Positions 20,366 to 31,827 of a stretch of 34,362 nt of DNA are shown piece by piece. The position numbers and the translations under genes were made by a program. Source of the DNA: an uncultured Candidatus Saccharibacteria bacterium (GTDB lineage: Bacteria; Patescibacteriota; Minisyncoccia; UBA11713; 2-01-FULL-45-33); the NCBI GenBank assembly GCA_964640425.1, contig CAZXFC010000002.1:1-34362 (forward strand), in the 5' to 3' direction. The notes beneath the pieces were generated by a model. That model made no database searches. It saw only the letters and a program-made list of their open reading frames with translations, and was not told the origin of the DNA. Positions within the stretch are counted from its first letter, which is position 1, and the number at the start of each line of letters is the position of its first letter.

Positions 20366-20638
20366 ATGCCGAAGAAAAAATCGCTTTCGGGACCGGTTAC
20401 CAAGGAATATCTAGGAGAATACACCGAACAGGTTATTTTGCCCGGAGTTGAGGCTATTCTTGAAAAACGTGTTGGTCCATTAGAAAAAAAAATCGATGAG
20501 GGGTTTGCGGAAATGCGCAAAGGATTTGCGGGCATCGAGAGATCCATTCAAGTTTTAGGAGGCGATATTGCCGAATTAAAAGAACAAAAATTGGATGAAC
20601 GCGTAAGAGTTTTGGAACGAAAAGCCGGAGTTAGATGA
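20366..20638 (+). CDS. Hypothetical coiled-coil protein
   Basis: Heptad-like 90-aa ORF; promoter TTGACA-17-TAGGAT 6 nt before the ATG. Confidence 0.75.
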   Translation: MPKKKSLSGPVTKEYLGEYTEQVILPGVEAILEKRVGPLEKKIDEGFAEMRKGFAGIERSIQVLGGDIAELKEQKLDERVRVLERKAGVR

Positions 20639-20659
20639 CCTAAACTAAGTTTGGGGCAA
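20635..20659. repeat. Distant copy of the RAYT-associated 25-bp palindrome
   Basis: ATGACCTAAACTAAGTTTGGGGCAA, 21/25 identical to 351-375. Confidence 0.7.
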
Positions 20660-22276: not shown

Positions 22277-23371
22277 ATGCGCATTAAGGATTACGACAGG
22301 ATATTTTTTTTGCTCACATCGGCGATCGTTGTTTTGGGGCTTTTTATTCTTGCTTCGGCTTCGCTTTCGATTTCAACGGAACGCTTCGGCCACTCTTATT
22401 ACTTCCTTTTGCATCAAATAATTTTCGGATTGCTTCCCGGATTATTACTGTTTTATCTGGCATTGAAAATACCTTACCGTTACCTTAGAAACATAGCCCT
22501 GCCCTTGCTGCTCTTCGCAATCTTTTTGATGTTCCTGGTTTTCCTGCCAAAGATAGGAATGTATCATGGCGGAGCGCGCCGCTGGATAGTCTTGGGCCCG
22601 TTAACTTTTCAGCCTTCGGAATTTTTGAAATTCGCCTACATAGTTTATTTATCCGCGTGGCTCGAATCAAAATCAAAACAACTGAATACTTTCAAATTCG
22701 GCCTGCTTCCTTTCGCCATCATGACGGCGTTCATCGCTTCTTTTTTGGTTATGCAGCCGGATATCGGAACGCTCGGAGTGCTTATTGCATCCATATTCGC
22801 GCTTTTTTATCTAAGCGGAGTAAAAATGAAACAACTCGGCATTTTAGCGGGTGCCGGAGCGGTCATTCTCTTGATATTGATCATAGCGGAGCCCTACAGA
22901 ATGGACCGGATTACCACATTTTTTTCACCTAACGCTAGCCCGCAAGGTTCCGGTTACCAGATCAACCAGGCGCTGATAGCCACGGGCTCCGGAGGCTTGC
23001 TTGGAAGGGGTTTCGGTATGAGCCGTCAAAAATTCAGTTATTTGCCTGAACCGATCGGGGACTCTATTTTCGCGGTGTATGCCGAAGAAATGGGGTTTTT
23101 AGGGAGCATAACGCTATTGTCTTTATTTTTGCTCTTTTTCGTAAGAGGCATTAATATAACAAAGATGGCGCCGGATTCATTCGGTAGATATTTGGGAGCC
23201 GGGCTGCTTTTTTTAATAACATTCCAGATTATAATCAATATCGCGGCAATAACCGGCATGATACCGCTCACGGGAATACCTCTATCTTTAGTAAGTTACG
23301 GCGGATCAGCCATGATGGTAACAATGCTCGAGGTCGGAGTGATATTCAATATTTCTAAACAAAAAAATTAA
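22277..23371 (+). CDS. ftsW: SEDS peptidoglycan polymerase FtsW
   Basis: GARRW, FQPSEFLK, QPDIGT, YLPEP..DSIF and PLTGIPL..VSYGGS; lies directly before murG. Confidence 0.92.
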   Translation: MRIKDYDRIFFLLTSAIVVLGLFILASASLSISTERFGHSYYFLLHQIIFGLLPGLLLFYLALKIPYRYLRNIALPLLLFAIFLMFLVFLPKIGMYHGGARRWIVLGPLTFQPSEFLKFAYIVYLSAWLESKSKQLNTFKFGLLPFAIMTAFIASFLVMQPDIGTLGVLIASIFALFYLSGVKMKQLGILAGAGAVILLILIIAEPYRMDRITTFFSPNASPQGSGYQINQALIATGSGGLLGRGFGMSRQKFSYLPEPIGDSIFAVYAEEMGFLGSITLLSLFLLFFVRGINITKMAPDSFGRYLGAGLLFLITFQIIINIAAITGMIPLTGIPLSLVSYGGSAMMVTMLEVGVIFNISKQKN

Positions 23372-23479
23372 ATGAACCCCGTAAAAAAATTTTCAATAAA
23401 ATATTTTGGCAATATTTTTTCTATACCAGTAGAAGTCGCTGCTGGACTATTATCTTATAAAAATTTTCTAACGGGGTGA
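23372..23479 (+). CDS. 35-aa element-encoded coupling uORF
   Basis: MNPVKKFSIKYFGNIFSIPVEVAAGLLSYKNFLTG*; starts right after the ftsW TAA and its stop overlaps the murG GTG (GTGA). Confidence 0.6.
   Translation: MNPVKKFSIKYFGNIFSIPVEVAAGLLSYKNFLTG
23377..23476 (+). mobile_element. 100-bp MITE-like element at the murG start codon (TGAA duplication at 23373-23376 and 23477-23480)
   Basis: CCCCGT...ACGGGG terminal inverted repeats; 79/100 gapless identity to the reverse complement of 31067-31166. Confidence 0.85.
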
Positions 23480-24609
23480 AAATACTATTTGCAGGCGGAG
23501 GTACGGGCGGACACTTTTATCCGCTCATTGCGGTCGCCCGCGCCATAAGAAAAATAGCCGAAGAAGAAAACATTGCGCGCATTGATCTTTTCATGATGTC
23601 CGATGATCCGATGGATATCGACATCCTGATGGAGGAGCGGATAAATTTCATCATGATCCCGGCCGGTAAAATGCGCAGGTATTTTTCATTCAGATATTTC
23701 GGCGATTCGCTGAAAACTCTTACGGGACTTTTTACGGCTTTTTGGCGTCTCTATTTCCTGGTGCCTGACGTTATTTTTTCCAAAGGAGGGTACGCGAGCT
23801 TTCCCGTGCTCGCCGCCGCACGCATTTTGAGCATTCCGGTTATGATACATGAATCAGATTCTGTTCCCGGCATAGTCAACGCATGGGCAGGGAAGTGGGC
23901 CTCGCGCATCGGAGTATCATTTGAAGAAAGCCTGAAATATTTTGAAGGGAAAAATGCGGCGCTCGTCGGAAACCCTATCCGTCCGCAAATAATCGGCGGC
24001 AATCTTATGGAAGCAGCAGATTATTTCAAGCTTGAAGAAGGAGAACTCACTCCGCCGGTACTTTTGGTGCTCGGAGGCTCACAGGGTTCGCAACGCATCA
24101 ACGAAACGATCCTCGATATACTCGCCGAGGCTCTCACGAAATATCAAATAATCCATCAAACCGGTAAGGCGCATTATATCGACATATCCGGAAGAGCAAG
24201 CGTCGCACTGGAAAAAAATCAATGGAAGCAACGCTACCATCCTTATGCTTTTCTGGAAGAAGGGGAATTGCGCAACGCATCAAAAGCCGCTTCACTCATA
24301 ATTTCTCGCGCAGGGGCAGGTTCAATTTTCGAAATATCCACCTGGGGAGTGCCTTCTATTTTAATCCCGCTGCCGAGTGCCGCGCAGGACCACCAAAGAG
24401 AAAATGCCTACGCTTACGCCCGTTTCGGCGCCTGCGAGATAATTGAAGAAACCAATCTTACTCCGCATTTGCTCCTGGCACAGATAGACAAAATATTAGC
24501 TGATAAAGCGCGCACTTCCAAAATGCAGCGCTCCGCTCAAGCTTTTTCGCGCATTGACGCCGCCGATAAGATCGCGCGTGAACTGATCAAGGTCGGACTA
24601 CACGATTAG
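23476..24609 (+). CDS. murG: Lipid II GlcNAc transferase MurG
   Basis: GGGTGGH, KGGY, IHESD, GNPIR, GGSQG, SRAG and QDHQ..NA. Confidence 0.96.
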   Translation: MKILFAGGGTGGHFYPLIAVARAIRKIAEEENIARIDLFMMSDDPMDIDILMEERINFIMIPAGKMRRYFSFRYFGDSLKTLTGLFTAFWRLYFLVPDVIFSKGGYASFPVLAAARILSIPVMIHESDSVPGIVNAWAGKWASRIGVSFEESLKYFEGKNAALVGNPIRPQIIGGNLMEAADYFKLEEGELTPPVLLVLGGSQGSQRINETILDILAEALTKYQIIHQTGKAHYIDISGRASVALEKNQWKQRYHPYAFLEEGELRNASKAASLIISRAGAGSIFEISTWGVPSILIPLPSAAQDHQRENAYAYARFGACEIIEETNLTPHLLLAQIDKILADKARTSKMQRSAQAFSRIDAADKIARELIKVGLHD

Positions 24610-30581: not shown

Positions 30582-31067
30582 TTATTGTTTTTTTAATTCC
30601 CTAACTTCAATTTTAACAACCGTCGCCTCAGCGCCGATTTTTATTTTTGCCTCGTGGAGTCCCAACGTTTTAATGGGCGTCTCTATCACAACCATTGATT
30701 CATCCATATTTTCAGGCAAAGGAAATTTAAGGACGTTTAGAGCCTCCAATATTTCTCTTGGGGAAACGGCGGCGTAAAGCGAGACTTCCTGCCCCGCTCC
30801 TTTTTGCGAAATCTCATTGCCTTTCTTTTTTATGACTATCCCCCGCTCCATAAGCGCGGCGCGCAAAGCATGCATAATCTCATGAATGCGTTTTTTTTCG
30901 GCGGTTTGGCTTTTTGATTGCTCTTCAACTTTTTTGATGGCGTCCTCGGTAGCGAGCTCGGCAAGCTTATTGCGAATAAGCATATTTCGGCCGAACCCGT
31001 CGGCTACATCTTTGATCTCCCCGCGCTTTCCCAGCTTGGGTACCTCTTTTAATAAGATTACTTTCAC
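30582..31067 (-). CDS. rplI: 50S ribosomal protein L9
   Basis: MKVILLKEVPKLGKRGEIKDVADGFGRNML...PIKTLG.H. Confidence 0.95.
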   Translation of the reverse strand: MKVILLKEVPKLGKRGEIKDVADGFGRNMLIRNKLAELATEDAIKKVEEQSKSQTAEKKRIHEIMHALRAALMERGIVIKKKGNEISQKGAGQEVSLYAAVSPREILEALNVLKFPLPENMDESMVVIETPIKTLGLHEAKIKIGAEATVVKIEVRELKKQ

Positions 31068-31171
31068 CCCGTTAAAAAATTTACATTATATAATATACCA
31101 ATAGCGACTACTACCGGCAAAGAAACATTATTGCCAACAAAGTTTATTTTAAATTTTTCTACGGGGTTCAT
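31064..31171 (-). CDS. 35-aa element-encoded coupling uORF
   Basis: MNPVEKFKINFVGNNVSLPVVVAIGILYNVNFLTG*; its stop overlaps the rplI GTG. Confidence 0.6.
   Translation of the reverse strand: MNPVEKFKINFVGNNVSLPVVVAIGILYNVNFLTG
31067..31166 (-). mobile_element. 100-bp MITE-like element at the rplI start codon (TGAA duplication)
   Basis: Same length, TIRs and TGAA flanks as 23377-23476. Confidence 0.85.
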
Positions 31172-31441: not shown

Positions 31442-31827
31442 TAGGCGGGTAATAAAGAAAAAAACAACAAGTTGTAATCAACAACTCCCAACACACAATT
31501 AAATACGCACAACCCCAGACAAACCAAACAACCACCAAACAACAGACAAACCACAAACACCCAAAAACTCCAACAACACCAAAACAACCCAAATAAACAC
31601 CAACACAATCAACCCCACAACTTACAACAACCCAAAACATCAACACCCACACCCCAACACTATCCAAACCGCAATCCAACTTATTACCAACAATCCAACA
31701 ACAACCGCCACCAAACCAAACTTCAACTTCCCATAACCAACACGACAAAAAAAACAACCACAAACTCTAAACCATAAATCCAACTCGCCCCGACCACCCA
31801 TGGACCTCTCGCAGGTCCTCTTTTTTT
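31430..31827 (+). ncRNA. Candidate A/C-rich non-coding RNA (unknown family)
   Basis: Bounded by a promoter and a terminator; no ATG-initiated ORF in the tract; GGCGGGT/ACTCGCC closing stem around 332 nt with only 9 G. Confidence 0.5.
31802..31827 (+). terminator. Intrinsic terminator
   Basis: GGACCT-CTCGC-AGGTCC followed by TCTTTTTTT. Confidence 0.7.

Follow-up and report, generated by a model that had tools for sequence, protein, structure and literature searches.

The stretch of DNA analyzed here (the window) comprises the first 34,362 nucleotides of contig CAZXFC010000002.1 from an uncultured Candidatus Saccharibacteria bacterium, in which two 100-bp elements with inverted ends occupy the start codons of murG and of rplI. 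At the murG site, positions 23369 to 23483 show the pattern TAA-A-TGAA-[CCCCGT...100 bp...ACGGGG]-TGAA-AATA, ending in AATACTA at the murG side. A preliminary description of the locus, made from the sequence alone, had given A-TGAA-[CCCCGT...ACGGGG]-TGAA-A for positions 23372 to 23480, and the sequence reads exactly so. The two sites are composed of the following features.

22277 to 23371, plus strand: ftsW-like gene (Pfam PF01098, E = 6e-96); its TAA stop at 23369 to 23371 abuts the original murG ATG.
23372 to 23374, plus strand: original murG ATG, now the start of a 35-codon upstream open reading frame (ORF); the empty-site orthologues in genomes G002 and G003 begin ATGAAAATA here.
23373 to 23376, plus strand: left TGAA of the 4-bp target duplication; the empty sites hold a single TGAA.
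23377 to 23476, plus strand: 100-bp element of subfamily A, read as nonautonomous, with inverted ends at about 23377 to 23394 and 23459 to 23476 (CCCCGTAAAAAAATTTTC and AAAAATTTTCTAACGGGG).
23477 to 23480, plus strand: right TGAA of the duplication; its TGA terminates the upstream ORF, and its TG joins the last G of the element (23476) as a new GTG.
23372 to 23479, plus strand: upstream ORF of 35 codons plus stop, MNPVKKF...NFLTG, with no protein family assigned.
23476 to 24609, plus strand: murG, 377 aa from the rebuilt GTG; the N terminus VKILFAGGGTGGH matches that of the orthologues, MKILFAGGGSGGH.
30582 to 31067, minus strand: rplI (ribosomal protein L9), 161 aa, with its rebuilt GTG at 31067 to 31065; residues 1 to 47 align with positions 1 to 47 of the Pfam profile.
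31067 to 31166, minus strand: second 100-bp copy of subfamily A, with 21 substitutions and no indels relative to the murG copy.
31064 to 31171, minus strand: upstream ORF of the rplI copy, MNPVEKF...NFLTG plus stop, from the original rplI ATG (31171 to 31169) to TGA (31066 to 31064).
31170 to 31167 and 31066 to 31063, minus strand: TGAA duplication of the rplI copy; the sites are empty in G002 and G003.

In both copies, the stop of the upstream ORF and the start of the host gene overlap in a GTGA (23476 to 23479 at murG; 31067 to 31064 at rplI). The ORF coordinates confirm that the last G of the element and the duplicated TGAA create an in-frame GTG together with an overlapping TGA, and that an uninterrupted 35-codon ORF runs from the host ATG to this GTGA, both as first described. 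The preliminary account of the rplI copy as a twin of the same length and geometry was also correct in every detail: beyond the substitutions listed above, the upstream peptides are identical at 21 of 35 positions and neither contains an internal stop. The two 35-aa frames match no Pfam family. The ORF downstream of the first copy is MurG by Pfam, with residue 3 aligned to profile position 1, and no later start codon is present ahead of its G-loop.

The ends of the murG copy match as terminal inverted repeats at ∼15 of 18 bases. The pattern CCCCGT-N(80-110)-ACGGGG occurs twice in the window, compared with a mean of 0.03 in 100 shuffled sequences, none of which reached two matches. When the RNA is folded, the two inverted ends are predicted to pair and to enclose the first base (G) of the new start, with modest z-scores of -1.6 and -1.9. 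Contigs from four DNA runs of a single study contained the filled allele only, with no joints, and are uninformative on expression and polymorphism.

Insertion is demonstrated by the empty sites of two genomes of the same genus, G002 and G003, whose murG orthologues are 85% and 84% identical, respectively. Their murG sites read ...aaattaaATGAAAATACTATTTGC and ...aatatttctaaacaaacaaattaaATGAAAATACTATTTGC, so that the ftsW stop is followed directly by the same beginning of murG, with one TGAA and without the element. Likewise, their rplI sites read ...tttgatATGAAAATC and ...ttgtttgatATGAAAATC, again with one TGAA and no element. These alleles are exactly those predicted by deleting the element together with one TGAA, which bears out the earlier proposal that removal of the 100 bp and one TGAA restores a normal murG start, and the empty-site orthologues that the proposal called for exist at rplI as well. 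Because the congeners hold empty sites, the murG and rplI copies must have arisen after the lineage split from them, and because the empty sites carry TGAA once and this genome carries it twice, TGAA is a true 4-bp target duplication. With inverted ends, a 4-bp duplication, and empty sites at both genes, the initial identification of a mobile element resembling a MITE (miniature inverted-repeat transposable element) holds.

The same comparison bears on the notion that the sequence is a host regulatory leader of murG and rplI, that is, a leader peptide or an attenuator hairpin, and not mobile DNA. A short ORF and a hairpin directly 5' of a gene do resemble such a leader. However, the sequence is missing from the same genes of the congeners, exactly at the predicted empty site, and the same family precedes unrelated genes and occurs in other phyla; the leader explanation is thus already contradicted and scarcely credible. 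A known structured RNA was also considered as an explanation and dropped, since an Rfam scan of the window returned a single tRNA and no structured-RNA family at the element.

The rest of the genome (1.15 Mb in 88 contigs, 89% complete) was searched with regular expressions, nhmmer, and end-pair searches, which yielded ∼32 copies of the family after five chance pairs were dropped. At least three subfamilies can be distinguished: the AT-rich subfamily A (100 to 103 bp), subfamily B (116 to 123 bp), and subfamily C (114 to 120 bp). In addition, there is one copy of 281 bp, and there are mini forms of 29 and 47 bp. The mini forms consist of little beyond the two inverted ends (G000:C8:18679, 29 bp; G000:C61:4495, 47 bp; and, in another genome, G402:C8:2145, 27 bp) and have TAAA/TTTA flanks.

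Placement at start codons, as initially proposed, is far above chance: 27 of the 32 copies lie directly 5' of an ORF of 70 to 612 aa that begins at the rebuilt start, which is GTG if the last base of the element is G and ATG if it is A. Besides MurG and L9, the genes behind the copies encode a release factor, RmuC, FtsX, an R3H protein, L13, L2, S3, S6, SSB, dUTPase, PolX, Hsp20, a type IV pilus ATPase, sugar enzymes, and an ABC-2 permease. The contention that the element can precede essential genes is therefore upheld by the copies at L2, S3, L13, S6, L9, SSB, the release factor, and MurG. The Pfam domains of the downstream proteins begin at residues 1 to 12, and their N termini are accordingly native.

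The bias toward starts was compared with the supply of ATGRR sites, of which 377 fall at predicted starts, 926 in nongenic DNA, and 8,250 within genes, under a crude gene call that takes the longest ORFs of at least 70 aa (1,285 ORFs, 90% coding). Even if every genic insertion were lethal, a start would be expected for only 29% of insertions. Each of the 21 copies whose left flank retains ATGRR lies at a start (P of ∼5e-12 by hand arithmetic), and a scripted test of 27 of 27 copies at starts gave a P value of 2.9e-15. Since the observed starts far exceed the 29% expectation, the choice of TGRR targets and the death of genic insertions are together insufficient as an explanation. Two readings are compatible with these counts: genuine targeting of starts, or persistence of copies only at sites where the duplication restores a required signal and where an imprecise deletion would be lethal. 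Over all genomes, A precedes 73 of 79 TGRR duplications, compared with 32% of the nongenic NTGRR sites of this genome; no target motif longer than ATGRR was found around the insertion sites, and no Shine-Dalgarno motif was found in the native leaders there.

The family reaches well beyond this genome. Its ends follow the consensus YCCCGTTAGA...TCTAACGGGR, and its 4-bp duplication is mostly TGAA, TGGA, or TGAG. The A-type pattern is present in 16 of 61 relatives (0 for the reversed-pattern control), and the exact ends CCCGTTAGA...TCTAACGGG, at a spacing of 75 to 105 nt, were found in 132 of the 401 class genomes sampled, with up to 27 per genome (reversed control, 0). At least 119 stretches in genomes of other species carry the exact ends; these are labeled Saccharibacteria, Parcubacteria group, Omnitrophota, Planctomycetota, Deltaproteobacteria, and others, with binning errors possible in metagenome-assembled genomes (MAGs). 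Phage records contained no match to the 281-bp element. Viral contigs gave two exact-pattern matches and were set aside; the one inspected was a chance match within a 949-aa ORF.

When the copies of this genome were pooled with loci gathered from other genomes (207 copies), identical 4-bp flanks were found in 118: TGAA in 52, TAAA in 20, TGGA in 17, TGAG in 10, TTGA/TCAA in 7, and others in 12. Strict inheritance of the duplicated tetranucleotide within a subfamily was rejected, as subfamily B has TGAA, TGGA, TGAG, TGAC, and TCAA; the duplication is real because copies of one subfamily carry different tetranucleotides (TGAA, TGGA, TGAG, TGAC). In the pool, 102 of 207 copies are on starts and about half of the short copies are elsewhere, among other places at TAAA and TTGA. 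Reconstruction of the empty sites puts the in-frame stop at a median distance of 6.5 codons upstream.

Three further observations concern the insertion sites. Copies with a TTGA duplication (G000:C48:2410-2530; L050, L017, L036, and L025) lie mostly within TTGACA (TTGA-CA in six of eight), with a TATAAT-like box 16 to 17 nt downstream, such that the duplication seems to rebuild the -35 box of a promoter. In tandem arrays (L054:5898-6279, L057:7673-7896, and the left flank of L197), successive elements share a TGAA, the rebuilt start having been hit again. Finally, the start of one ABC-2 permease gene (MNWIGLQTF...) holds a full-length nuclease-encoding element (see below) in G036 (L185), which is of a different family, and in this genome a 101-bp short copy (G000:C44:3764-3864) plus an older end fragment.

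The copies are also fixed in orientation. In this genome, with copies oriented by gene, 55 of 56 pairs whose internal similarity exceeds the shuffle range align forward. Of the 21 similar pairs in the pool, 19 match the duplicated tetranucleotide in orientation; these include all five TAAA pairs, most of them intergenic, and the two that deviate both contain a single copy with a duplication that reads TCAA in element orientation. A fixed orientation to a nonpalindromic target is not a known outcome of symmetric DDE transposition and fits either selection or a cut-and-join reaction via nonpalindromic 4-nt overhangs.

These results are relevant to the possibility that the element is an ordinary MITE moved by a DDE-type transposase that is unassembled or external. 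Inverted ends with a short duplication are the classic mark of such enzymes, and insertion sequence (IS) elements often fail to assemble in MAGs. Ends of the form CCC..TAGAAA with a 4-bp duplication resemble those of piggyBac and IS1380. This lead found no support: neither IS1380 nor DDE_Tnp_1 transposases, the two families searched for in this 89%-complete, 88-contig assembly, gave a match, and IS1380 occurs in only 2 of 201 genomes of the class, with ends that differ from those of the family. Moreover, all end pairs 300 to 4,000 bp apart in this genome and ∼140 loci enclose ordinary genes and no transposase, and the fixed orientation to a nonpalindromic target is, as a rule of thumb, unusual for such transposases. 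The autonomous transposase with CCCCGT/ACGGGG ends that the preliminary description had anticipated was thus not found; the partner with the same ends encodes a GIY-YIG nuclease instead.

This partner is the 281-bp copy at C14:12030-12310, which is flanked by ATGAA...TGAA, lies 5' of an RfbC-like gene, and encodes an 86-aa ORF. The ORF is a GIY-YIG domain (PF01541; E = 3.4e-17; 62.9 bits versus a cutoff of 22.6), and the nearest solved structures by sequence match are the UPF0213 structural-genomics proteins 1zg2 (BH0048; E = 3.9e-8) and 1ywl. The final codons of the ORF, ...CTA ACG GGA TGA, are made up of the element's right end and the duplication, and the stop overlaps the host ATG. No empty site was found for this copy, the rfbC gene not being found in the congeners with the query used. 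A full-length copy at the start of frr in G004 shows that this form, too, is a discrete insertion: the ATGAT site is empty in two congeners, G019 and G015, whose Frr proteins are 91% and 90% identical, respectively.

Full-length forms of ∼275 to 285 bp contain this one ORF only, and their terminal inverted repeats share the 13-bp consensus TCCCGTTAGAGAT. Exact ends 245 to 275 nt apart occur in 44 of 401 genomes of the class (control, 0), and nearly all of those inspected carry the nuclease ORF. Among 37 intact copies analyzed in detail, 26 lie immediately in front of a host ORF of 60 aa or more and 11 are not on starts. The nuclease ORF stops on the stop of the duplication in 27 of the 37 and on a TAA within the right end in 5. 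The catalytic-type residues Y, Y.G, KR, H, Y.E, and RE are conserved in at least 90% of the copies. In 10 of the 16 copies with a perfect ATGRR duplication, the host ATG is in frame with the nuclease, which gives a 95-aa form beginning MNPVRD. The protein database holds 5,058 clusters of homologues. In the top 120, LTG is the ending of 104 and M[NSDE]PV the beginning of 36, a beginning that represents the host ATG read through the left end of the element; the commonest lengths are 86 aa (59 clusters) and 95 aa (40 clusters). In G233, two full-length copies that are 89.6% identical lie at different genes with different duplications, TGAG and TGAA, and one full-length copy was found in a MAG labeled Planctomycetota. 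Short copies are present in 33 of the 44 genomes with the full-length form and in 99 of the 357 without it (odds ratio, 7.8; P = 1.5e-9), a test that ignores relatedness and in which the same end motif defines both forms.

The same inverted ends also enclose complete tRNA genes. Such copies carry Ala-CGC, Pro-CGG, Gly-CCC, Ser-CGA, and Val-TAC tRNAs, at six loci and one half-site:

L251 to L256: tRNA-enclosing copies at G004:C42:22426-22533, G020:C16, G169:C1, G041:C1, G056:C10, and G397:C15.
G000:C39:6974: half-site.

The flanks of several of these copies resemble a broken, decaying tRNA gene; those of L253, for example, match the anticodon arm and the 3' half of the tRNA-Gly inside. A tRNA gene split by an element may be made good by a replacement that the element brings along. 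Other small GIY-YIG genes or fragments, without inverted ends, adjoin tRNA genes (G000 C40:10228, C62:13, C44:4862, C19:18377-18532, C2:47225-47308, which is outside the window, and C5:29862); on C19, the 5' part of a tRNA is duplicated and followed by a GIY-YIG remnant, and that tRNA itself is intact immediately downstream.

Because the ends enclose tRNA genes too, the nuclease gene could itself be cargo, as it would be if a DDE-type transposase moved the family. On the other hand, the 280-bp unit recurs in 44 of the 401 genomes, and the last codons of its conserved ORF are the right end itself. Taken together with the searches above, movement by such a transposase is quite unlikely.

The favored explanation, to which we assign a probability of about 70%, is that 23377 to 23476 and 31067 to 31166 are nonautonomous members of a very large family of mini-elements whose full-length form, of ∼275 to 285 bp, encodes an 86-aa UPF0213-type GIY-YIG nuclease. 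It is built on the insertion, the duplication, the inverted ends, the copy number, the start-codon position, the fixed orientation, and the nuclease ORF of the full-length form. The nuclease would move both the short and the full-length forms, and start-codon occupancy would result from the choice of (A)TGRR targets combined with survival only where the duplication rebuilds a needed signal. As anatomy, the element is a MITE, a known kind; what is new is a start-codon target with a rebuilt start, the fixed orientation, and a parent that encodes only a nuclease.

Several points weigh against this explanation. Besides the modest fold scores, the crude gene calls, the transposase search confined to two families, the limits of the co-occurrence test, and the copies, both short and full-length, that lie away from starts, the similarity of the short copies to the full-length copy of this genome extends over only ∼12 to 20 terminal bases. 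Because it stops there, shared ends are established and not descent by deletion, and derivation of subfamily B from this full-length copy by deletion is not claimed. Furthermore, GIY-YIG nucleases are not known to perform transposition, and nuclease-driven movement is proposed here from sequence. The cargo role considered above and the broken upstream frames described below count on the same side.

On a start codon, the host ATG stays on the left of the element, and the duplicated TG with the last base of the element (A or G) rebuilds ATG or GTG for the host gene on its right. The nuclease ORF of the full-length form starts at the host ATG or a few codons after it; it ends either at the TGA of the duplication, in an ATGA overlap, or at a TAA that lies within the right end and 4 nt ahead of the new start. 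Under the favored explanation, the element would in this way borrow the host initiation region and return the ribosomes by termination-reinitiation, with upstream and downstream translation presumably coupled. Short copies retain both ends and part of the nuclease frame, and the murG and rplI copies preserve the full geometry.

The inverted ends hold stops in two frames, so that an upstream ORF free of internal stops has three possible endings, set by the length of the element. A length of 1 mod 3 leads to the TGA of the duplication and a length of 0 mod 3 to a TAA 4 nt before the new start, while at 2 mod 3 the upstream frame runs into the host gene in frame. The first two endings are those of the full-length nuclease ORF, and the frame that the preliminary description regarded as a translational relay is thus the reading frame of the parent nuclease; the 35-codon frame shares its ...LTG-stop ending with the 86-aa ORF.

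In the short copies, this frame is retained only in part. Among the 26 short start-codon copies of this genome, a tally that leaves 2 unevaluated, 11 are relay compatible behind an intact ATG (8 with the overlap and 3 with the TAA ending), 7 have an early stop behind an intact ATG, and 6 lack the upstream ATG, of which 3 have open ACG-headed frames and 3 are closed. The overlap is found in 13 of 54 start-codon copies of the wider sample, where lengths vary by indels. Neutralization of the insertion by termination-reinitiation, as first proposed, is plausible at murG and rplI, where stop and start overlap as GTGA, and fails as a rule for short copies. The tabulation that accompanied the proposal was similarly mixed: position at starts is clear, lengths of the start-codon copies divide 23, 18, and 13 among 1, 0, and 2 mod 3 (6, 12, and 25 for non-start copies), and frames are open only in part. 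A replacement of the upstream ATG by ACG, with the downstream TG kept, was observed at G000 C44:3764, C20:4121, C4:12719, and C33:2335 and at L022, a recurrent T-to-C change.

It could be, then, that the upstream ORF of the same mobile element is inert, that ribosomes start directly at the rebuilt GTG or ATG, and that the open frame, inherited from the source copy or from the nuclease frame of the parent, has not yet decayed. The broken-frame copies, with their stops 48 to 92 nt before the new start or no upstream ATG, all precede conserved genes, such as those for the release factor, L13, S6, L2, and FtsX. Subfamily B lengths span 116 to 123 bp, and the lack of Shine-Dalgarno motifs in native leaders implies that initiation here may not need one. 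In the five 100-bp copies, variable sites are spread evenly over the codon positions (14/23, 16/23, and 16/22), with no third-position excess. Conversely, all five of these copies are open, for which the chance without selection is ∼0.02 to 0.04 under a star tree, a value that is suggestive only; 1 mod 3 is the commonest length at starts and the least common away from them (6 of 43); of the four frames headed by ACG in this genome, three remain open as far as the relay stop; the predicted end-to-end stem takes in the first base of the new start; and the ORFs of 27 of the 37 full-length copies finish precisely at the stop of the duplication. On balance, an inert ORF is rather unlikely. The initial suggestion of selection on the relay frame nevertheless does not extend to short copies in general, given the early stops, the even spread of variable sites, and a five-copy probability that is no more than suggestive. 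In our reading, the full-length element would be designed around coupling, which plausibly still operates at the murG and rplI copies; a short copy can be tolerated without it.

A bolder proposal, which we offer tentatively and at somewhat less than even odds, is that the ∼280-bp units represent a new class of DNA transposon, smaller than any other autonomous mobile element known, with an 86-aa Slx1-like GIY-YIG nuclease as their sole protein. The nuclease would make cuts staggered by 4 nt at the inverted ends of its element and at (A)TGRR targets, and the element would be joined in through nonpalindromic sticky ends; the duplication and the fixed orientation would both be accounted for in this way. 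Expression of the nuclease would depend on the host ATG and leader, and the host would be repaid through the ATGA stop-start overlap.

Two other repeats occur in the window. A different palindromic repeat of ∼23 to 28 nt (TGACCGAAACTAAGTTTCGGACA) is present four times, mostly in intergenic DNA (348 to 375, 542 to 569, 1016 to 1043, and 20632 to 20659). Near the rplI copy, positions 31511 to 31602 contain three imperfect A/C-rich direct repeats of 27 nt (AACCCCAGACAAACCAAACAACCACCA).

Bacterial MITEs include the Correia elements of Neisseria, RUP of pneumococci, and Nezha of cyanobacteria. The short copies share with them small size, lack of coding capacity, inverted ends, a short duplication, high copy number, and cotranscription with neighbors. 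In contrast to these MITEs, the family described here targets the start codon itself, which the duplication rebuilds, its orientation is fixed relative to the gene, and the only larger element with the same ends encodes a GIY-YIG nuclease and not a transposase. The Rickettsia palindromic elements, reportedly described by Ogata et al. in 2000, are similar in being palindromic selfish DNA tolerated at essential genes of small genomes. They are, however, in-frame internal insertions that become part of the protein, whereas the 104 bp added here (100 plus 4) are not a multiple of 3, and the element precedes the coding region such that the host protein keeps its native N terminus.

IS200/IS605 elements and their palindrome-associated derivatives are likewise very small and lie in fixed orientation beside a specific 4- to 5-nt sequence; they have subterminal hairpins and an HUH transposase and are not known to have terminal inverted repeats or a duplication, unlike the present family with its real duplication. 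Inserts neutralized at translation are known from the bypass of T4 gene 60 and the byp elements of yeast mitochondria. There, too, the damage done by a mobile insert is undone by the ribosome, but those inserts are skipped within a coding frame, whereas here stop and restart overlap or the start codon is rebuilt.

Free-standing GIY-YIG homing endonuclease genes (phage T4 seg and I-TevI) are also selfish nuclease genes wedged between host genes. Homing enzymes copy themselves into one cognate site via recombination, have a DNA-binding domain, and are not known to have inverted ends or a duplication. In contrast, the 86-aa domain found here is bare and belongs to a unit that has both inverted ends and a duplication and that occurs at many unrelated genes. 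An assignment as a homing endonuclease gene was rejected, as the copies precede many unrelated genes and carry duplications. By sequence, the full-length nuclease belongs to the UPF0213/YhbQ/prokaryotic Slx1-like stand-alone GIY-YIG proteins (1zg2, 1ywl). In the accessible part of PMC1564403, the prokaryotic stand-alone Slx1-like proteins are given as the minimal GIY-YIG form with no role or mobility stated, and inverted repeats are not mentioned. Full-text literature searches, with subscription journals and supplements beyond reach, returned no account of inverted-end elements bearing a GIY-YIG gene or located on start codons, and the family is apparently undescribed.

About one-third of the sampled genomes of a class of ultrasmall bacteria carry such elements, as do MAGs labeled as other phyla, and gene callers already assign wrong starts to many of the genes concerned, as seen in 95-aa "MNPVRD..." proteins and "excinuclease ABC subunit C" labels. 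The copies form a set of natural experiments on restart translation in bacteria without a clear Shine-Dalgarno sequence, and the system is small enough to be tested with synthetic DNA. If the 86-aa GIY-YIG protein does move the elements, it would be a transposition enzyme off the usual list, and the stand-alone orphan UPF0213 nucleases would gain a function. It would also point to a general mode of self-compensating insertion that covers start codons, -35 boxes, and tRNA genes for which the element supplies a substitute tRNA. Mobile DNA can be tolerated before the essential genes of very small genomes because its insertion rebuilds the signal that it splits.

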